Assembly (NCBI GenBank): GCA_913045935.1
Contig: CAJWSY010000004.1
Coordinates: 578-64,577 of the forward strand
DNA from: an uncultured Chloroflexota bacterium
GTDB lineage: Bacteria; Chloroflexota; Dehalococcoidia; Lucifugimonadales; GCA-002694895
Reading direction: 5' to 3'
Length of the DNA stretch: 64,000 nucleotides
The notes under the pieces were generated by a model, which saw nothing but the letters and a program-made list of their open reading frames with translations, did no database searches and had not been told where the DNA came from. The stretch's first letter is position 1. Each line of letters opens with the position of its first letter. Position numbers and translations under genes: made by a program. Of the stretch, positions 3,397 through 18,343 are shown piece after piece.

Positions 3397-4662
3397 ATGG
3401 ATAAAATAAATAATGATATGTTAGTAATTCAGGTTGGTGAATTGATAGATGGGATATCAAGCGAATCAAAAAAGAATATAAGCATAGTAATTAGTGGGAA
3501 TTCAATTGTAGATATTAAACCAACTGGGGAACTTTCTATTCCATCTGATTTAGATCATAAATTAATTGACTATTCAGATAAAACTATTTTACCAGGATTA
3601 GTTGATTCGCATGTACACTTAACTGGAATAGGAGACGGGAGAAGCGGTGATGAGTTATCAACATTACCAGACGAGGTTTTATCGATTAATATGGCAAATA
3701 ATGCAAAAAAACATTTACATTCTGGAGTAACAACTGTTAGAGATTGTGGAGCTAAAAATGATACTGCATTTCATTTAAGAACTGCTGCGGAGATGGGGAT
3801 TATTGATACCCCTAGACTAGTTTTGAGTGGCAGACCTTTAGCAATCATTGGAGGACATCTAAGTTATTTTGGAGAACAAATAACGGGTGTAAATGAATGT
3901 CGAGCTGCTGTGAGATATTTGATTAAACAAGGAGCTGATTTTATTAAAGTTACAGCTTCCGGTGGAAGTACGAAAACATCTTTTCCCCTTAAACCAAGTT
4001 TTTCGCAACAAGAATTAAATGTAATTGTTGAAGAAGCGCACAAATTTGGGAAGCATGTTGCTGCACATTGTCATAATTCTGAAGCAATGGTCAGATCTTT
4101 AAATGCAGGAGTTGATACTATTATTCATGGAGTTTTTAAAGAACCAGATGGAACAAATAAGTATAGGGAAGATATTACAGAATTGATGTTAGAGAAAAAT
4201 ACTTATGTTAATCCTACTTTAGGTCCAGGAATGATGAGAGTCCAAGTAATGGAAAATAAAAAACAACAAGGGAATTTTTCAGAATTTGATCAAGAAGAAA
4301 TGGATCAAATCTTATTTGAACATGAATACAGAATGAAGTGTTTTAGTAAAATGCATGAATCTGGGGTACCTATGTCAGCCGGGTCTGATTCTGCTTGGGG
4401 AGCTTATGAGATGGGTAATTTTTTCTTAGATATTGAAGGTCATGTTATCGGTGGTCAAACTCCTATGCAAGCAATTCAATCTGCAACAAGTATAGCTTCA
4501 AAATCTTGTTGGATAGATGATAGTCTTGGGTCAATCGAAACAGGCAAACTCGCTGATTTGATTGTATTAGATGAAAGTCCAATAAATCAGATAGAAAATT
4601 TACGAACTGTATCTGAGGTAATAAAGAATGGAGAATTTGTAGATAGAAATAATTTATTGTAG
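3397..4662 (+). CDS. amidohydrolase family protein (paralog of the preceding gene)
   Basis: PGLVDSHVH, GDGRSGDE, IKVTASGGSTKTSFPLKPSFS and AGSDSAWG align block by block with the upstream paralog. Confidence 0.8.
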   Translation: MDKINNDMLVIQVGELIDGISSESKKNISIVISGNSIVDIKPTGELSIPSDLDHKLIDYSDKTILPGLVDSHVHLTGIGDGRSGDELSTLPDEVLSINMANNAKKHLHSGVTTVRDCGAKNDTAFHLRTAAEMGIIDTPRLVLSGRPLAIIGGHLSYFGEQITGVNECRAAVRYLIKQGADFIKVTASGGSTKTSFPLKPSFSQQELNVIVEEAHKFGKHVAAHCHNSEAMVRSLNAGVDTIIHGVFKEPDGTNKYREDITELMLEKNTYVNPTLGPGMMRVQVMENKKQQGNFSEFDQEEMDQILFEHEYRMKCFSKMHESGVPMSAGSDSAWGAYEMGNFFLDIEGHVIGGQTPMQAIQSATSIASKSCWIDDSLGSIETGKLADLIVLDESPINQIENLRTVSEVIKNGEFVDRNNLL

Positions 4663-8934: not shown

Positions 8935-9468
8935 ATGTTTGAAATGGTAATAGACAGTATTAGAGTTAGTCTAATGAATTACCAAAGAGTTGTTATTTTG
9001 AAAGAAAAACATTCTAAGAGATATCTTCCAATGTGGATTGGGACCAATGAAGCTGAAGCTATAGCTTTGAAATTAGAAGATGTTTCAGTTCCGCGACCTA
9101 TGACTCATGATTTGTTGTGTAATTCATTTGAATCTTTAGGAGCAAGACTGGATTATGTTGTTGTGAGTGATGTGAACCATGAAGATACATTTATGGCTAA
9201 ATTAGTCTTAGATTTTAAGGGGGACTTGATTGAAATAGACTCAAGACCTAGTGATGCGTTAGCATTAGCAGTAAGAACGAATGCTCCTATTTATGCTGAA
9301 GATAAGGTACTTGACAAAGCTGGGCTTGAATTAGATAAAAATGAGGAAGGACTGAAATCTACCGAAAAGTTTCCAAATACCAATGATAAAAAAACAAGTG
9401 ATCAAAAAGAGTTAAAACTATCTGCTTTTGATGAATTTATGGAAGAATTAGATTTAGACGATTTTTAA
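8935..9468 (+). CDS. bifunctional nuclease (BFN/DUF151) family protein
   Basis: LPMWIG..EA.AI and RPMTHDLL...DSRPSDALALA motifs of the BFN domain. Acidic C-terminal tail. Confidence 0.8.
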   Translation: MFEMVIDSIRVSLMNYQRVVILKEKHSKRYLPMWIGTNEAEAIALKLEDVSVPRPMTHDLLCNSFESLGARLDYVVVSDVNHEDTFMAKLVLDFKGDLIEIDSRPSDALALAVRTNAPIYAEDKVLDKAGLELDKNEEGLKSTEKFPNTNDKKTSDQKELKLSAFDEFMEELDLDDF

Positions 9469-9494: not shown

Positions 9495-9755
9495 ATGTAT
9501 ATGATAGGATTTAAAAGTTTTGAGGAGAGTGATTTGGGGTCTAGGAAACTAATATTAGCTTTTCAATTAATAGGAATTGGGTGGTTTGTTGCTGTGTGTT
9601 TAATAGGAGGAGCCTTAATAGGAAAATGGATTTCAGGATTTTTTACCTTCTCAAAATCTGAACCTGTGTTTTTAGTAGTAGGATTGCTTTTTGGAATATT
9701 TACTGCAGGATGGGGGACATTTAAATTAATTAATATTTTATTGAAATCAGATTAA
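9495..9755 (+). CDS. atpZ: AtpZ/AtpI-type small membrane protein of the ATP synthase operon
   Basis: 86 aa, two TM helices, immediately upstream of atpB. The exact start is uncertain (ATG at 9495 or 9501). Confidence 0.65.
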   Translation: MYMIGFKSFEESDLGSRKLILAFQLIGIGWFVAVCLIGGALIGKWISGFFTFSKSEPVFLVVGLLFGIFTAGWGTFKLINILLKSD

Positions 9756-9761
9756 GAATTA

Positions 9762-11006
9762 ATGAGCAAAATTTATTCAACGATATCTAAAATTATTTTA
9801 AATCCGATATTTTTGGGAGTTTTATTTGTTGTCTCAATTCTTGGAGGAGGATTAGGGACTGCCTTGGATTTAGGTTTTCTTAGCGCTCCTTTTGCATATA
9901 TTTCCATCCCGGCTGAAACTTTGTATTACTTTAAAGGCAAAGGCTTCTTATATGAATTTCTGAATAAAGCGTTAACAAATACTTTGCTCATGTCTTTATT
10001 ATCAATATTGATATTAACACTAATTTCAAGGCGTGCCACAAAAAATATGAAAGTGGTTCCAAGTGGTTTGCAAAATCTGATTGAATTTGCATTGGAAGCC
10101 ATGTATAACACGTGTAAAAAAATCGCTGGAGATGACAAAGGAAAAGTTTTCTTTCCGTTAGTAATGACAATATTTCTCTTTGTTGTTATATCAAATTGGA
10201 TTGGTGTGCTACCTGGAACCGGTACCATAGGTCGAATTGAGACAGCTGAAGAATATTGTCACCACCAAGAAGAAAAAAACAATTTAGGACATGATGTGAA
10301 ATTTAATATTTATAAAACTAATGGAGTTCTTGCCTCGACAATGTTTGGGTATGGGAAAACTGATTATTCAATAAAGTCTTCAGACAAATCACTTTTTTCT
10401 GATTCTTACTCAAAGTCAGATTCTGTGCAAAGCAAAGATTCACATTCTAAATCTGATTCAGGGCATGGTCACGATTCGCACTCAGGAAGTATTGTATGCT
10501 CTCATCATTGGTTGGAACATGATTTTGTTCATGCAAAAGAAATCAAGGCTAAAGAACTGGGAGTAGCAAATTTCGATGATAATTTTAAGGTTGGAATTTT
10601 AGTTCCATTTTTCAGAGGTACTAATTCGGATATGAACACCACTTTAGCATTGGCATTGATAGCTATGGTTTGCATACATTGGTGGGGATTCAAATATTTG
10701 GGACTAACAGGGCATGCAGGGAAATTCATCAATTTTAAAAACGGTCCAATAAACTTTTTTGTTGGAATTTTAGAGTTGGTTGGAGAATTTGCTAAAATAT
10801 TAAGTTTTACTTTTAGGTTATTTGGGAATATTTTCGCAGGAGAAGTGTTATTATTTGCGATGGCATTTTTATTACCATTAATTGGAATTATTCCTTTTAT
10901 AGGCTTAGAATTATTCGTTGGATTAATTCAGGGGCTTATATTTTCAATGTTAACTCTAGTTTTTGCTTCTATATCTACTGTAGAGCATAATTCAGATGAT
11001 CATTGA
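9762..11006 (+). CDS. atpB: F0F1 ATP synthase subunit a, unusually long (414 aa) because of an internal insertion
   Basis: Conserved C-terminal region LSFTFRLFGNIFAGE (essential Arg) and MNTTLALALI. Operon position. Insertion about aa 156-285. Confidence 0.9.
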   Translation: MSKIYSTISKIILNPIFLGVLFVVSILGGGLGTALDLGFLSAPFAYISIPAETLYYFKGKGFLYEFLNKALTNTLLMSLLSILILTLISRRATKNMKVVPSGLQNLIEFALEAMYNTCKKIAGDDKGKVFFPLVMTIFLFVVISNWIGVLPGTGTIGRIETAEEYCHHQEEKNNLGHDVKFNIYKTNGVLASTMFGYGKTDYSIKSSDKSLFSDSYSKSDSVQSKDSHSKSDSGHGHDSHSGSIVCSHHWLEHDFVHAKEIKAKELGVANFDDNFKVGILVPFFRGTNSDMNTTLALALIAMVCIHWWGFKYLGLTGHAGKFINFKNGPINFFVGILELVGEFAKILSFTFRLFGNIFAGEVLLFAMAFLLPLIGIIPFIGLELFVGLIQGLIFSMLTLVFASISTVEHNSDDH

Positions 11007-11033
11007 TCAAATTTATGATAAATTATTAATTAA

Positions 11034-11285
<252 letters not shown>

Positions 11286-11320
11286 TTGTTTTTTAGATTA
11301 ATAAAAATTAGGAGTTTTAT

Positions 11321-11818
11321 ATGGATGCATTAGGCATTAATTGGCCTGGTCTCTTAACTCAGGTAATTAGCTTTGTTATTCTTTTTACTTTGTTAAAGAA
11401 ATTTTTGTATGCTCCTGTAGTAAAAATGCTTGAAGACCGATCTGAAAAAATCAAATCAAGTCTAGAAACTGCAGAGAGAGTTAAACAAGAAGCAGAAAAA
11501 ACTACAGAAGTGAATGAATCATTGATGATTAAGGCTAGAGAAGAGTCTCAAGCTCTCATTTCTGAAGCTCGGGAACAAGCCAAGAAAATCAAAGAATCTG
11601 AAATGGAAAAAAGTAAAGAGCAAATTGATAGCGAAAGAAAGAGAGCTCTTGATGAAATAAATTCAGAGCAAGAAAAAATAATTAATAATATTAGATCAGA
11701 GTTTTCAGGGCTAGCAATAGCTGCTGCAGAAAAAATTGTCGAACGAGAAGTAAACGAAAAAAATCATGATCAAATTATTAGTTCTTTCTTAGATAAAGCA
11801 AAAAAAATTAATAACTAA
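11321..11818 (+). CDS. atpF: F0F1 ATP synthase subunit b
   Basis: Single N-terminal TM followed by a long charged coiled-coil region. Operon position. Confidence 0.9.
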   Translation: MDALGINWPGLLTQVISFVILFTLLKKFLYAPVVKMLEDRSEKIKSSLETAERVKQEAEKTTEVNESLMIKAREESQALISEAREQAKKIKESEMEKSKEQIDSERKRALDEINSEQEKIINNIRSEFSGLAIAAAEKIVEREVNEKNHDQIISSFLDKAKKINN

Positions 11819-11837
11819 ATAAAGGTATTTTGAGCCG

Positions 11838-12371
11838 ATGGCTAAAGATTCAAAAACAGCAAAAAGATATGCTAAAGCAATATTCGAATTAGCTTTAGAA
11901 AGTAAAGATATTGATACTTGGTTGACAAATATAAGATTGGTTTGTGAATCTGCTAAAAATCATGAATTTAGTATGATCTTAGATTCATCTAAGATATCAT
12001 CTGAAGACAAAAATTTTTTGGTCGACAAAGTTTTAAGTTCGAAGTTAAGTGATTTGCAGTTGAACTTTGTTAAATTGCTTGCTAAAAATCAATCTTTTTT
12101 GTTGATAAATGAAATTTACAATCAATTTGAGCACGAATTTGAAAAGCATAATAATAAAGTAAAAGTTACACTTTCATCGCCATTTAAAGTTGATTCTAAT
12201 TTGAGAAACAAGATCAATGAATTGGTGAAAAATATTTCAGGATCGGATCCTCAAATAGAAGAAAAAATTGATGACACACTAATTGGTGGTATTGTAATTA
12301 AAATTGGTGACACTGTAATTGATGGAAGTTTTAAAAACAAATTGAAACAATTAAAAAGAGAATTAGTTTAA
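11838..12371 (+). CDS. atpH: F0F1 ATP synthase subunit delta (OSCP)
   Basis: 177 aa, RYAKAIFELA N-terminus and IGG.V.K.GD...DGS C-terminal motif. Operon position. Confidence 0.9.
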   Translation: MAKDSKTAKRYAKAIFELALESKDIDTWLTNIRLVCESAKNHEFSMILDSSKISSEDKNFLVDKVLSSKLSDLQLNFVKLLAKNQSFLLINEIYNQFEHEFEKHNNKVKVTLSSPFKVDSNLRNKINELVKNISGSDPQIEEKIDDTLIGGIVIKIGDTVIDGSFKNKLKQLKRELV

Positions 12372-12387
12372 CTAACGGAGGACAGTT

Positions 12388-13893
12388 ATGGCAAATGAAG
12401 ATATAACCTCAATAATAAAAGAACAAATCAAACAATTTGGTGATGATTTAAAAGTTGAACAAACTGGTACGGTAACTGAGGCAGGTGATGGTGTAGCTAG
12501 AGTGCAAGGATTATCAACTGTAAAAGCTAATGAAATTGTTCAATTTGAAAATGATGTTTTTGGATTGGCTTTAAACTTGGAAGAAGACACAGTAGGTGTG
12601 GTTATTCTAGGAGATTATCTGGGAATTAAAGAGGGTGACGAAGTTAAAAGTACCGGAAGAATAGTAGAAGTCCCTGTGGGACAAGAAATGATTGGAAGAG
12701 TTTTGAACCCTTTGGGTCAACCAGTTGACGGTAAAGGAAATATTAAATCGTCAGATACTATTGAAGTCGAAAAGATTGCTCCTGGTGTTGTAGAAAGAGA
12801 ATCAGTCAATCAGCCAGTACAATTTGGAGTTAAAGTTGTTGACGGGTTAGTGCCTATTGGTAGAGGTCAGAGAGAATTGGTTATTGGAGATAGAGGTACA
12901 GGCAAAACTGCTGTTTGTATTGATGCAATTATTAACCAGAAAGGTGGAGATTTAATTTGTATTTATGTTTCTATTGGACAAAAAGCTTCTAAAGTAGCAA
13001 ACATAGTAAATCAATTAGAAGTTAACGGAGCTATGGATCATACAATTGTTGTTACTGCTAATGCCTCTGAATCAGCAGCATTACAATATTTGGCGCCCTA
13101 TGCAGGGTGTGCGATGGGTGAATATTTCATGTCACAAGGTAAAGATGTATTGATTGTATATGATGATCTTACAAAACATGCATGGGCATATAGACAGATG
13201 TCTCTTCTACTAAGAAGGCCACCAGGAAGAGAAGCATATCCCGGAGATGTGTTTTATTTGCACTCAAGATTACTAGAAAGAGCTGTTAATCTATCTGATG
13301 ATTACGGGGGAGGATCTATGACAGCTTTACCTGTTATAGAAACACAGGCAGGAGATGTGTCTGCGTATATTCCAACAAATGTAATATCAATTACAGACGG
13401 TCAAATATACTTAGAACCTGATTTGTTTAACTCAGGTATAAGACCAGCAGTAAACTTGGGATTATCGGTAACAAGAGTAGGTAGTTCTGCTCAAACAAAA
13501 GCAATGAAATCTGTGGCTGCAAGTTTGAAAATTGAAATGGCACAATTCCGTGAACTTGAAAGCTTTGCTCAATTTGGTTCTTCTGATTTAGATGATGCTA
13601 CGAAAAAACAACTTGATAGAGGACAAAGGATATTAGAATTATTGAAACAAAACGAAGCTTCGCCTGTTACTATGCAACAACAAGTATGTTTATTCTATAT
13701 GGTTAACGAAGGAGTCTTTGATGATATTCCTTTAGAAAAAGTAAAAGAATTTGAACTTAGTTGGTATGATTACGCTGAATCTAATTTAGACAAAGTATTG
13801 GATAATATTAAGACTTCTGGAGAATTGTCAGATGATGATAAGAAGATAGTTAGCGATGTTAGTTTAAAATACAAAAAATCAATGGGTTATTAA
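12388..13893 (+). CDS. atpA: F0F1 ATP synthase subunit alpha
   Basis: Walker A GDRGTGKT and highly conserved alpha-subunit blocks ([27 protein letters not shown]). Confidence 0.98.
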
Positions 13894-13899
13894 ATTTAA

Positions 13900-14775
13900 A
13901 TGGCAAGTACTAAAGAACTAAGAACAAGAATTAAATCTATTTCAAATACTGCTAAAGTAACTGGAGCTATGCAGATGATTGCAGCTTCCAAATTAAGAAA
14001 AGCTCAAAATTCTGCTGAGGAATTTAATTTGTTTTCCAAGGGATATGATGACATTAAAAATAGTTTAATGGGATCTGTGAATTTTGATTTACTTTCTGAA
14101 ATAAGCCCATTATTTAATAATGAAGATAGTAATAAGAACGGGAACATTCTTTACATTGTTATGTCTTCAAATCGTGGATTGGCTGGACCTTTGTTTGGGA
14201 ATCTGGTTAAAATTCTTGAGGCTCAAAATACCGATCAAGCTAGCTTTATTAGTGTTGGTAAAAAAATAGAAAAATATTTATCTTCTAGAAAGCGAAATTT
14301 AATTCAATCTTATGATATGAAAGATGAATTTGACCCTTCTGAAATAGATCAATTATCAGATCTAGTTATAAATGAATTTACGAATAATGAATATTCACAG
14401 GTTAAACTAATTTACACACATTTTAATAGTGTTGCTAAACAAACGGCCCAAGTGGTTGATTTATTACCGTTCAAGGAAGAATCAGATGAATCGACTCAAA
14501 ATACCCAATTAAGCGGTCATATATTTGAACCTAATCAAATAGATCTAGTTTTAGATTTTGCACCTAAATTTATTTTGACTATTATTTTTGGTGCGATTTT
14601 AGATTCTTTAGCAAGTGAACATGCTGCAAGAATGGTAGCAATGCAAAACGCTACTGACAATGCTAACGAATTAGTGGAAGATTTAACATTAGATTTAAAC
14701 AAAGCAAGACAAGAAACTATAACTTCAGAGTTGTTAGACTTAGTAGGTGGAATGTCTGCTATAGAAGAAAATTAA
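13900..14775 (+). CDS. atpG: F0F1 ATP synthase subunit gamma
   Basis: N-terminal ELRTRIKSI.NT.K.T.AM.M.A.SKLRKAQ and C-terminal ITSELLDLVGG motifs. Confidence 0.95.
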   Translation: MASTKELRTRIKSISNTAKVTGAMQMIAASKLRKAQNSAEEFNLFSKGYDDIKNSLMGSVNFDLLSEISPLFNNEDSNKNGNILYIVMSSNRGLAGPLFGNLVKILEAQNTDQASFISVGKKIEKYLSSRKRNLIQSYDMKDEFDPSEIDQLSDLVINEFTNNEYSQVKLIYTHFNSVAKQTAQVVDLLPFKEESDESTQNTQLSGHIFEPNQIDLVLDFAPKFILTIIFGAILDSLASEHAARMVAMQNATDNANELVEDLTLDLNKARQETITSELLDLVGGMSAIEEN

Positions 14776-14782
14776 ATATTAA

Positions 14783-16195
<1,413 letters not shown>

Positions 16196-16202
16196 GATTA
16201 GC

Positions 16203-16445
16203 ATGTCTTTTGAAATTAAAATAGTATCTAAAAACGGATTAGAATTCGAAAGTGAAGTAGATTCAGTAACATTGCCAGCAAAGGATGGTTATATAACGGT
16301 ATTGAGGAGTCATGCGAGTTTGATAACTTCTTTGAATGCAGGTACAATTACCGCTCGTTTTTCTGGGCAAAAGGAAAAAAATATTGAAATCACGGGTGGT
16401 TTTTCCGAGATTAAAGAAAATAAATTAACCGTATTAATAGATTAG
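16203..16445 (+). CDS. atpC: F0F1 ATP synthase subunit epsilon, N-terminal beta-sandwich domain only (80 aa)
   Basis: MSFEIKIVS...LPAKDGYITVL..HASLIT.L..G...GGFSEI...LTVL matches the epsilon N-terminal domain. ATG at 16203 preferred over the in-frame TTG at 16173, which lies inside atpD. Confidence 0.85.
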   Translation: MSFEIKIVSKNGLEFESEVDSVTLPAKDGYITVLRSHASLITSLNAGTITARFSGQKEKNIEITGGFSEIKENKLTVLID

Positions 16446-16446
16446 A

Positions 16447-17073
16447 TTATTTATCTAAGTAATATGACATAGACTGAAGTGATAGTATCGGGTCAATATT
16501 CATGCAAGACACATTTTTCGGTATTATTGGTTTCATAGGGGCATAGTTCAAAATCCCTTTTACACCAGATTGAATAAGCCGGTCTATTACTCCTTGGGCA
16601 TCAATGGCCGGAACTGTTACTATTCCTATTTTTATATCAAGTGTTTTAATGTATTGATTCATATCTGATATAGATCGAATTTCTATATCAGATATAGTTT
16701 TTGTTTTTGGAATGGATATATCAAAAGCCACTTTAATTAAATATCCTTCATCTTTAAACCCCTGGTAATTAATTACAGCTTGACCTAATTTACCTACCCC
16801 AACAACACAGGAATTCCAAGATTTATTTAAATTTAGTATTTCTCTAAGTTCTTCAAGTAAATAATCAATATTATAGCCTTTACCTTGTTTGCCAAATTTT
16901 CCAAAGTGACTGAAGTCTTTTCTAATTTGAGCAGGTGTGGTTTGTAATAGATGCCCTAAATGCTCTGAACTTATTGTAGTTTGATTCATTGATTTGAGGT
17001 CATTTAAGGTTCTTACATAAAGTGGCAATCTGTTAATTACTATATCGGGAATATCTTGTTCAGTATTATTCAT
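16447..17073 (-). CDS. rex: redox-sensing transcriptional repressor Rex
   Basis: N-terminal winged helix RLPLYVRTL...ISSE.L, then KDFSHFG.FG..G.GY and Rossmann GVGKLGQA. Confidence 0.9.
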   Translation of the reverse strand: MNNTEQDIPDIVINRLPLYVRTLNDLKSMNQTTISSEHLGHLLQTTPAQIRKDFSHFGKFGKQGKGYNIDYLLEELREILNLNKSWNSCVVGVGKLGQAVINYQGFKDEGYLIKVAFDISIPKTKTISDIEIRSISDMNQYIKTLDIKIGIVTVPAIDAQGVIDRLIQSGVKGILNYAPMKPIIPKNVSCMNIDPILSLQSMSYYLDK

Positions 17074-17212: not shown

Positions 17213-18343
17213 ATGGATGAAGTTAGAATTCATAGAGGTTTAAAAGAAGTTTACCTTGATAGAACTAAGTCAAGTTATGTTGATGGTAAGAATGGTAAAT
17301 TATATTACCGAGGATTTAATATAAATGAATTAGCTAACAATTCATCTTTTGAAGAAGTTAGCTATCTTTTGATTCATGGTAAATTACCAACAAAATCAGA
17401 ATTAATTCAACTAACTGAATGGATGTCAGTTAGGAGAGAAATCCCATCCCAAATTATTGATTTGATTTCATCAATAAAACATTTACATCCAATGGATGTT
17501 CTGAGGACAGCAATTTCTACATTGTCTGCTTATGATAAAGATTTAGAAGATGAAAGTATACAAACGAATATAGAAAGAGGATTGTCTATTACAGCCAAAG
17601 CTCCAACAATAGTGGCAACGCATGTTAGATTAAGAGATGGTAATGATATTATTCCTCCAAATAAAAATTTGTCACATTCTGCTAATTTTCTATATATGTT
17701 ATTTGGACAAGAGCCAGATGATTTAGATGCTAAATTAATTGATAAAGATTTGATTTTACATGCTGAGCATGGATTAAATGCTTCTTCATTTACAGCTAGA
17801 GTAGTAGCTTCTACTCAATCAGATATGTATTCTGCTATCACAGCTGGAGTTGCAGCACTAAAAGGACCTGCCCATGGAGGGGCAGCTGAAGGAGTAATGA
17901 AGCAAGCACAAGACATTGGAGACGAAAGTAATACAAAAGAATATGTTAAAGATCTATTATCTAGTGGTGGAAGAATCATGGGATTCGGGCATCGAGTTTA
18001 TAAGACAGCTGATCCGAGGGCTTTAATATTAAAAAAAGACGCAAAGAATTTAAGTGAAAGAAAAGGAAATCCAAAATGGTTTTCTATATTACAGTCACTT
18101 GCAGAATGTATGGAACCTTATGAAAAAAAAGGCATATGTGAGAATGTTGATTTTTGGACTGGTGCTATATATAACTTGCTAGAGATCCCAGACGATATTT
18201 TTGTTTCAATTTTTGCATTAGCTAGAATACCCGGATGGACTGCACAAGTCACAGAGCAATTAGATAACAATATTCTTATTAGACCTTTACTAGAATATGT
18301 TGGAGAATTGGATATCCCGTATATAGACATTGATGAACGATGA
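17213..18343 (+). CDS. citrate synthase (short, about 376-aa type; 2-methylcitrate synthase not excluded)
   Basis: LILHAEHGLNASSF, GPAHGGA and GFGHRVYKTADPR catalytic blocks. Confidence 0.9.
   Translation: MDEVRIHRGLKEVYLDRTKSSYVDGKNGKLYYRGFNINELANNSSFEEVSYLLIHGKLPTKSELIQLTEWMSVRREIPSQIIDLISSIKHLHPMDVLRTAISTLSAYDKDLEDESIQTNIERGLSITAKAPTIVATHVRLRDGNDIIPPNKNLSHSANFLYMLFGQEPDDLDAKLIDKDLILHAEHGLNASSFTARVVASTQSDMYSAITAGVAALKGPAHGGAAEGVMKQAQDIGDESNTKEYVKDLLSSGGRIMGFGHRVYKTADPRALILKKDAKNLSERKGNPKWFSILQSLAECMEPYEKKGICENVDFWTGAIYNLLEIPDDIFVSIFALARIPGWTAQVTEQLDNNILIRPLLEYVGELDIPYIDIDER

Follow-up and report, generated by a model that had tools for sequence, protein, structure and literature searches.

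A genus-specific enlargement of the aH3–aH4 loop in the ATP synthase a-subunit of a marine SAR202 bacterium, and its possible role as a proton-collecting cap

Why would an ATP synthase a-subunit carry a long loop rich in His, Ser and Asp at the place where protons enter the enzyme? The gene that raises this question, atpB, lies in a 64,000-nucleotide stretch of contig CAJWSY010000004.1 (the window), which comes from a marine SAR202 Dehalococcoidia metagenome-assembled genome (MAG) of small size and 30% guanine-plus-cytosine (GC) content. The mouth of the a-subunit is the proton entry to ATP synthase, and the supply of protons there in seawater is a long-standing bioenergetic question. In AtpB, the stretch that links helices aH3 and aH4 is an insertion of a sort already known from Chloroflexota, made longer still in this genus. 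We propose that this periplasmic enlargement acts as an acidic, His-rich cap that collects and buffers protons, a statement to which, taken whole, we assign a probability of roughly 0.45. Searches of the literature on SAR202 ATP synthase subunit a and on proton-collecting antennae of ATP synthase yielded no description of these loops.

Identity and position of the loop

AtpB is a genuine F-type a-subunit, a conclusion on which Pfam, the PDB and the operon context concur. The Pfam family ATP-synt_A (PF00119) matches the product in two separate segments, one on each side of the insert, at 144.5 bits (cut-off 33.9), and the closest solved a-subunit by sequence is that of Chloroflexus aurantiacus (9itj_T; HMMER, E = 7.3e-53). 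In a Foldseek search every match down to E = 2.5 was an ATP synthase a-subunit, again with C. aurantiacus on top, at a TM-score of 0.5–0.57 on the target and with a query model of moderate quality. AlphaFold2 (AF2) predicts helices at residues 291–322, 329–380 and 382–405 in the C-terminal part, in keeping with a helical fold that has the long aH5–aH6 hairpin. The gene is the sole a-subunit gene in the genome (1.33 Mb, 30% GC, 76% complete). Its landmarks are listed below; lengths are in amino acids (aa), and the conservation of individual columns, here and throughout, is taken from a MAFFT alignment of 116 relatives.

9762..11006, + strand: atpB, F-type ATP synthase subunit a, 414 aa (open reading frame, Pfam and PDB match)
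10197..10217, + strand: WIGVLPG, residues 146–152, periplasmic end of aH3; N145, W146, G148, L150, P151 and G152 invariant
10218..10622, + strand: whole aH3–aH4 linker, residues 153–287 (135 aa), enclosing the 156–285 insert (alignments, anchor lengths)
10632..10661, + strand: MNTTLALALI, residues 291–300, start of aH4; N292, T294, L295 and A298 invariant
10815..10817, + strand: codon of Arg352, the essential stator Arg in FRLFGN; invariant, aligned with C. aurantiacus Arg249

An earlier note, made from the letters of the window, had reported an insert of about 130 aa in AtpB. The insert is there, encoded by 10227..10616 (residues 156–285) between aH3 and aH4, and so are all the motifs quoted with it: WIGVLPG at 146–152, CHHQEE at 166–171, MNTTLALALI from 291, FRLFGNIFAGE with Arg352, the low-complexity run SDKSLFSDSYSKSDSVQSKDSHSKSDSGHGHDSHSGSIVCSHHWLEHDFVH and two loop cysteines, C166 and C246. 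When AtpB is aligned by HMMER to solved a-subunits, its residues 165–279 find no counterpart. From anchor to anchor (the invariant G152 and N288), the linker measures 135 aa here, whereas relatives of the ordinary type within the order have 20–27 aa. Its composition is equally distinct from that of the rest of AtpB, with 8.1% versus 1.4% His, 8.1% versus 2.2% Asp and 14.1% versus 6.1% Ser. The genome has 1,267 open reading frames (ORFs) of 100 aa or more; only four of them, atpB included, are His-dense, with at least 5 His in some stretch of 15 aa.

The same note had placed the loop on the P side of the membrane, by the proton entry, and comparison with a solved structure leads to the same place. 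The aH3–aH4 linker is what we take to be the helix 2–3 loop of the older E. coli numbering. The flanks of the insert align to C. aurantiacus residues 47–141 and 180–308, so the insert falls at the same site as the insertion of that species. In the C. aurantiacus structures determined by cryogenic electron microscopy (PDB 9itj–9itx; PNAS 2025, PMC12002316), the aH3–aH4 insertion at His142–Thr172 lies at the periplasmic surface, with disorder in part of the linker (His136–Pro157 or His136–Ile169), a Cys135–Cys173 disulfide of the linker lies ‘on the periplasmic surface’, the inlet begins at His170/Asp171, and the aH3–aH4 hairpin touches the peripheral stalks; no function was assigned to the insertion. 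In 9itj the linker is thus periplasmic at the inlet mouth, and the even cysteine counts of the loops, given below, fit an oxidising compartment. The identity and location of the enlarged loop are, in our judgment, very nearly certain.

The channel residues can be matched one by one. N356, E361, E383 and E338 are invariant among the relatives and make a gap-free match to C. aurantiacus Asn253, Glu258, Glu280 and Glu235, and T155 corresponds to Ser131. Within the loop, H253 and D254 stand at or beside the columns of His170 and Asp171 in chained alignments and are candidate equivalents; position 253 is His in five of six congeners and position 254 is acidic in all. Tyr46 (9897..9899) is the equivalent of C. 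aurantiacus aHis31, which is listed as an inlet half-channel residue (PMC12002316). This position is Tyr in the window's genus (FAY-IS) and His in the Dehalococcoidia relatives of ~350 aa (LAH-IQ).

Two observations could raise the suspicion that the insert is an artefact or a foreign sequence. The first is its unusual length and composition. The second is the MAG SAR202-LRMED-127 (G006; L015 / L008 / L112), a long-read assembly of the same genus in which the atpB frame is broken in the loop region, with one TGA and a match in three pieces; a long-read homopolymer error is the likely cause, and the window has an A7 run at ~10272..10278. The frame of the window gene is open, without stops, and the GC content is level across the insert region. 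The exact AtpB protein is recorded from NCBI, JGI, ENA, Logan and Tara. Variants of the same 414-aa form, at 96–99% identity, occur on more than 100 independent contigs (e.g. P0125 on 95 and P0126 on 20), so the insert is no assembly artefact. Length is fixed in the species-level cluster, with 414 aa in nearly all complete members and 415 aa in one, and the flanking scaffold is common to hundreds of relatives.

Nor was the insert captured from another protein, since the loop alone matches its own clade only: a loop-only phmmer search of 1.84 billion representatives returned four proteins, all of the own clade (one full-length a-subunit and three fragments), and no homologue outside own-clade a-subunits. 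No Pfam domain was matched inside the insert, and a loop-only search of the PDB gave only sub-threshold matches to designed pentatricopeptide repeats, judged spurious. With no such domain and no homologues in other protein contexts, an intein or mobile-element insertion was rejected. Tandem Repeats Finder (minimum score 30) and a search for direct repeats (6-nt seeds, 10100–10700) found no DNA repeats under the low-complexity run; a recent microsatellite-type expansion is unsupported by any repeat array, though the peptide shows a loose six-residue rhythm (YSKSDS / VQSKDS / HSKSDS).

Architecture of the loop

The linker is built from a conserved scaffold, a genus-specific addition and a variable tract.

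10218..10358, + strand: loop part A, residues 153–199, with strand GTIGRIE, short helix EEYCHHQEEK containing HHxEE, and beta-hairpin DVKFNIYKTNGVLASTMFGYG (conservation, AF2)
10257..10259, + strand: Cys166 codon (TGT), first of the loop Cys pair, kept in all six genus members and in P0002–P0006
10359..10406, + strand: loop part B, residues 200–215, TDYSIKSSDKSLFSDS, genus-specific addition after the hairpin, gap-free
10407..10490, + strand: low-complexity His/Ser/Asp/Lys tract, residues 216–243, YSKSDSVQSKDSHSKSDSGHGHDSHSGS, of variable length, low identity and low predicted local distance difference test (pLDDT) score
10497..10499, + strand: Cys246 codon (TGC), second of the loop Cys pair, kept in all six genus members
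10503..10559, + strand: predicted return helix, residues 248–266, HHWLEHDFVHAKEIKAKEL (AF2)
10584..10622, + strand: FKVGILVPFFRGT, residues 275–287, conserved strand into aH4; G278, L280, P282 and R285 invariant, AF2 strand 275–282

The scaffold consists of the strand GTIGRIE, the HHxEE helix, the hairpin, the return helix (HHWLEHDF...) and the strand VGILVPF, and it is under purifying selection. In part A, T155, G157 and E160 are invariant, and H168, E170, F184, G188 and G196 are each conserved in at least 90% of the relatives. AF2 assigns loop strands to residues 156–161, 180–185 and 275–282 and helices to 162–171 and 248–266; the strand into aH4 aligns with C. aurantiacus residues 180–187, LVPLFRAP. 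The CHHQEE motif singled out in the earlier note is present, but it is really a family-wide HHxEE (H168 and E170) joined to a clade-specific Cys; Cys166 is absent from the ~350-aa relatives. The C166–C246 span of 79 aa encloses the hairpin and the low-complexity tract, and the pattern of conserved cysteines suggests that a disulfide between them probably closes the scaffold.

Conservation across six species of the genus, expressed as mean pairwise identity per region, falls towards the middle of the loop: 80% in part A (153–199), 56% in part B (200–215), 33% in the tract (216–243), 66% in part C (244–279) and 90% in helices aH4–aH6 (280–414). Relative to relatives with loops of ~82 aa, the sequence that the genus has added after the hairpin reads TDYSIKSSDKSLF, then the variable tract, then (I/V)CSHHWLEHDFxxAKxIKAxELxxxNFDxx; part B is absent from relatives with loops of 77–85 aa.

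The His/Ser/Asp core is the least conserved part of the loop; it evolves almost neutrally and is predicted to be disordered. Over the six congeners its length ranges from 0 to 26 aa: two go directly from SLFNH to NEICS, three are intermediate, and the window tract is 26 aa longer than in the two tract-less species. Within the loop, pLDDT drops below 50 at residues 194–201 and 213–243 only. The nonsynonymous divergence (dN) of the tract is 0.5–1.1, with a ratio to synonymous divergence (dN/dS) of ~1 over few alignable codons, whereas the rest of the loop has a dN of 0.07–0.22 and a dN/dS of ~0.03–0.08; dS is saturated for most genus pairs (>1 or undefined), and only the contrast between regions is meaningful. 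In the closest genus pair, loop dN/dS is ~0.6–0.8 versus 0.06–0.12 in the core (small counts). Within the species cluster, variable positions are over-represented in the tract (~6/28) relative to the rest of AtpB, H228 and G234 being among them. We take the tract to be dispensable for the enzyme.

Two further low-complexity His/Asp tracts, both in ORFs of the His-dense set of four, occur in the same genome. One forms the (HDDHDK)n end of a 301-aa membrane protein (C51 from base 4118, + strand) that, as we read its sequence, presumably is a ZIP-type metal transporter. The other, DSHDDDDDHDHDEHKDHS, comes right after the lipobox of a lipoprotein (C3 from base 65365, + strand) that looks like a solute-binding protein; this tract, like the AtpB loop, is probably outside the cytoplasm.

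Distribution and recurrence among relatives

The earlier note implied that the insert was unique, and this did not hold, since the basic insertion had already been described in Chloroflexus and long loops are common in relatives. To compare linker lengths, a-subunits were taken from ~100 relatives, giving 101 sampled sequences. The nearest named relative is SAR202-LRMED-127, and the other named ones are Dehalococcoidia, SAR202 or Chloroflexota MAGs. The ordinary bacterial type of linker (20–27 aa) occurs in ten genomes of the same order; the largest group has 77–85 aa, and a long tail reaches 173 aa. Loops of 77–173 aa make up 90/101 of the sample, 13 sequences exceed the 135 aa of the window, and a-subunits of 350–450 aa are the rule in this group. 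A common occurrence of such loops in relatives, which the earlier note had named as a finding that would count against it, is largely what the comparison shows; H168 and E170 are conserved across the family, and both Cys are kept in all congeners.

What distinguishes the window's genus is a loop of 109–135 aa, i.e. a further 27–53 aa added after the conserved beta-hairpin. On a maximum-likelihood tree of the core, built with the loop columns removed, the genus clade (support 100, long stem) sits among the sequences with ~82-aa loops, and the enlargement is therefore derived. The same tree requires a minimum of 7 state changes for a loop of at least 90 aa, 10 for a His-dense tract (at least 5 His in 15 aa) and 9 for the Cys pair. 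His/Asp/Ser tracts stand before the hairpin in some lineages (e.g. HHLHHSDDHHSDDHHDSHH and DHGSDHGSDHGS) and after it in others (e.g. DHDDHSSDHKSDEHKHK, HGHGHSHDH and the window), and the Cys pair encloses a His tract in five lineages. The insertion is thus a hot spot in an ocean clade that is abundant worldwide, with at least seven enlargements and many independent gains of acidic, His-dense tracts and of Cys pairs.

Cysteine counts bear on the location of these loops. Among 99 relatives, 74 have none in the loop, 23 have two, 2 have four, and an odd number never occurs; such even counts point to disulfides and hence, as strong indirect evidence, to an extracytoplasmic location. The loops of relatives are acidic, their net charge averaging −9.2 and spanning −23 to −2, and they are richer in His than the core (6.1% vs 1.8%). 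The recurrence of acidic, His-rich tracts across lineages lends indirect support to the ideas of a proton antenna and of a metal site, which are weighed below.

Three observations concern the short-loop clade. One member, L098 (G057:C1:701400-703100), carries there an insertion of its own, 109 aa long and unrelated, in which two Cys lie close together (CTPAPC); independent insertions are therefore accepted at this site in both a-subunit clades. In L099 (G011), ~232 aa before the LPG anchor form an N-terminal extension and not a loop insertion. The open frames of G012 (L096) and G050 (L097) measure 437 and 418 aa.

Proposed function and rival explanations

We propose that the acidic, His-rich cap would sit over the mouth of the periplasmic proton-inlet half-channel. 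Its carboxylates and imidazoles would raise local proton capture and buffering in seawater, which is alkaline, and the captured protons would pass on to T155, E361, E383 and N356 in the channel. At most, the low-complexity tract would add capacity to such an antenna. Carboxylate/imidazole proton-collecting antennae are established for cytochrome oxidase and reaction centres. The proposal of a cap is made because of the composition of the loop and the precedent of the ice-worm ATP6 tail (see below), and its placement at the periplasmic inlet because of the C. aurantiacus structure. Also counted for it are the following: the loops are acidic and enriched in His, His tracts have at least 10 origins at two loop positions, such tracts are rare in the proteome, and the c-subunit, as we read its motifs, looks H+-type. 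The antenna function taken on its own, drawn by analogy, is tentative, and we would give it somewhat less than an even chance.

Several points weigh against this reading. The net charge of the window loop, −4, is much less acidic than the family mean. Its C166 and C246 are not positionally homologous to C. aurantiacus Cys135 and Cys173. A hidden Markov model of the hairpin, made from relatives with 77–85-aa loops, gave no score on the window hairpin, and the evidence for hairpin homology consists of the three MAFFT columns F184, G188 and G196. The AF2 model is mediocre (mean pLDDT 66). The His-rich tract is missing in two congeners and evolves in a neutral-like manner, so any selection on it is weak. 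The apparent excess of His-dense tracts in ocean-titled MAGs, 10/21 versus 1/35 in long-read MAGs of unspecified habitat, is no more than a lead: it carries no phylogenetic correction, and the habitats are guessed from titles. In Bacillus PS3 (6n2d; eLife 2019, PMC6377231), the aH3–aH4 loop is periplasmic, adjoins the half-channel, contacts subunit b and varies between bacteria, and Guo et al. held that this high variability makes a core role of the loop in proton translocation unlikely.

The rival that survives best, although we consider it somewhat unlikely, is neutral decoration: a permissive, exposed site would gather tolerated insertions and low-complexity tracts, and neither the enlargement nor the tract would add anything to the enzyme. 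A loop that ranges from 20 to 173 aa within one order speaks for it, as do a tract of 0–26 aa in one genus with predicted disorder and a dN/dS of ~1, the raised loop ratio in the closest genus pair (again from small counts), and the same view taken of bacterial loops generally by Guo et al. (PMC6377231). Against it, drift at 30% GC would favour Asn, Lys and Ile over the His, Asp and Gly seen here, and acidic His-rich tracts and paired Cys recur independently at least 9–10 times. Moreover, the parts of the enlargement that are not low-complexity are 56–80% identical and gap-free across the genus, and almost every complete member of the species cluster has the same total length of 414 aa. For the tract itself, neutral decoration is at least as likely as any function.

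A periplasmic metal site is improbable. The His/Asp/Cys-rich loop would bind Zn2+, Ni2+ or Cu2+, as its sequence might suggest, and thereby gate or inhibit proton entry or stabilise the fold. GHGHDSH and CSHHWLEHDFVH look like metal-binding tracts of the (HX)n type; DHGSDHGSDHGS, HHSDDHHSDDHHDSHH and HGHGHSHDH occur in relatives, often within a Cys pair; and the strongest His/Asp tract of the genome is the tail of the transporter that we take, from its sequence, to be ZIP-type. However, the loop shows no conserved ligand geometry, the tract differs in its His positions even within the species cluster (H228 and G234 vary), the tract is missing in congeners, and even Cys numbers suggest disulfides over thiolate ligands. 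Free metal concentrations in oligotrophic seawater are, in addition, very low, which counts against this rival. In favour of metal binding to a-subunits in general, a zinc ion caps the cytoplasmic channel in the a-subunit of Pseudomonas aeruginosa, and for Polytomella the presence of Zn2+ in the periplasmic half-channel has been suggested (PMC12796488).

About equally improbable is a purely structural or assembly role, in which the loop would pack on the periplasmic N-termini of b or on the c-ring rim and take over stator stabilisation from accessory subunits, playing no part in proton supply. The Bacillus PS3 loop forms an extra interface with b, proposed as a substitute for mitochondrial subunit f (PMC6377231), the C. 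aurantiacus hairpin contacts the peripheral stalks (PMC12002316), and the conserved hairpin and helices of the predicted model resemble a small folded module. Yet most of the C. aurantiacus insertion is disordered in the map, a poor fit to a tight interface; the b-subunit here is ordinary (165 aa), with no evident matching extension; and the recurrent enrichment in His and acids would be left unexplained. Finally, an artefact or foreign insertion, whether by misassembly, frameshift, intein or captured mobile-element fragment, has a negligible chance of being correct in view of the open frame, the independent contigs and the searches described above.

A broader form of the cap proposal reaches beyond the window. 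Marine Dehalococcoidia (SAR202) would repeatedly, and independently of one another, have built disulfide-stapled, acidic, His-rich periplasmic caps at the inlet mouth as an adaptive, possibly metal-gated proton-harvesting device with which a slow-growing oligotroph could make ATP at low proton-motive force in alkaline seawater; the loop in the window would be one instance of this convergence. We consider this generalisation unlikely. The relatives form a natural series of variants, with loops of 20–173 aa that have or lack His tracts; among them are congeners almost identical except for the tract. This series makes the antenna idea testable. The window gene itself is a normal, functional atpB with a dispensable His-rich core, and the interest lies more in the family-wide convergent pattern.

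Genomic setting

The gene is the second of an operon that runs in the order atpI-like, atpB, atpE, atpF, atpH, atpA, atpG, atpD, atpC (9495..16445, + strand), the other parts of which are as follows.

9495..9755, + strand: atpI-like small membrane protein, first gene of the atp operon (Pfam ATPase_gene1, PF09527; E = 9.9e-07, 29.2 bits vs cut-off 26.6)
11061..16445, + strand: operon remainder, atpE (c), atpF (b), atpH (delta), atpA, atpG, atpD and atpC (epsilon)

The c-subunit (atpE) has 74 aa, b (atpF) 165 aa and delta (atpH) 177 aa. We read the motifs of the c-subunit as H+-type, with Ala after the ion-binding Glu and no Gln or Ser/Thr at the Na+ site. By this motif reading Na+ coupling was set aside, and protons are the likely coupling ion.

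In C. aurantiacus there are two a-subunits and two stalks, a feature that the authors attribute to an N-terminal domain of delta that is ~20 aa shorter (PMC12002316). The window delta (11838..12371, + strand) is full length: its residues 7–176 align end to end with ordinary 178-aa delta subunits, and its match to the C. aurantiacus delta (157 aa) covers residues 72–176 only. A two-a-subunit architecture was therefore set aside, and the loop insertion is not tied to the two-stalk feature. The statement that all Chloroflexi share a short delta fails for this SAR202 genome.

The epsilon subunit (atpC, 16173..16445, + strand) is just 80–90 aa long, and Pfam finds the beta-sandwich domain only (residues 13–90). 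It lacks the C-terminal helical domain, the part that mediates epsilon auto-inhibition in other bacteria. The atpC ORF as listed begins at a TTG overlapping the end of atpD, and an internal Met 10 codons on may be the true start.

Immediately upstream of the operon, 8935..9468 (+ strand) encodes a 177-aa protein with a bifunctional nuclease (BFN) domain and an acidic C-terminal tail. Downstream, one base from the operon end and convergent to it, lies a gene at 16447..17073 (− strand) whose product matches Pfam Put_DNA-bind_N and CoA_binding; from this pairing we take it to be a likely Rex-type redox-sensing repressor. It is followed at 17213..18343 by what we judge, by eye from the translation, to be a citrate synthase-like gene.

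Comparison with known systems

The only His-rich appendage of this kind with functional data is that of the ice worm Mesenchytraeus solifugus, whose ATP6 has a His-rich C-terminal extension that raised ATP synthesis ~5-fold when fused to E. coli AtpB (FEBS Lett 2025, PMC12035521). Like the window tract, it is a His-rich, low-complexity appendage on an a-subunit homologue near the proton pore. Unlike the window tract, it is C-terminal, lies at the proton exit pore, belongs to an animal mitochondrion and has no sequence relationship to the loop; the analogy is one of mechanism only. The ordinary loop of the Bacillus PS3 type occupies the same topological position but measures ~20–27 aa by the anchors and is not His-rich.

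Closer in sequence are the common Dehalococcoidia/SAR202 a-subunits of ~350 aa (e.g. P0012 and P0031), with 45–56% full-length identity to the window protein. They share its N-terminal region, the HHxEE motif, the hairpin (VKLQVFEGDGxFxxxxFGS) and the AG(L/I)LVPF entry into aH4, whereas their loops of 77–85 aa have no cysteines and are without the segment TDYSIKSSDKSLF...CSHHWLEHDFVHAKEIKAKELGVANFDDNF.

Among solved structures, the C. aurantiacus a-subunit is the best match in both sequence and fold. Its linker of ~59 aa, against ~135 aa in the window between the same anchors, is without the conserved beta-hairpin, the genus-specific addition and the low-complexity His/Ser/Asp tract found here. 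Both have an aH3–aH4 insertion, periplasmic and partly disordered in C. aurantiacus, and the channel residues Arg249, Asn253, Glu258, Glu280 and Glu235 all have equivalents here. A Cys pair brackets the excursion in each, at different alignment positions, and H253/D254 are candidates for the His/Asp residues that mark the start of the inlet just before aH4 in C. aurantiacus.

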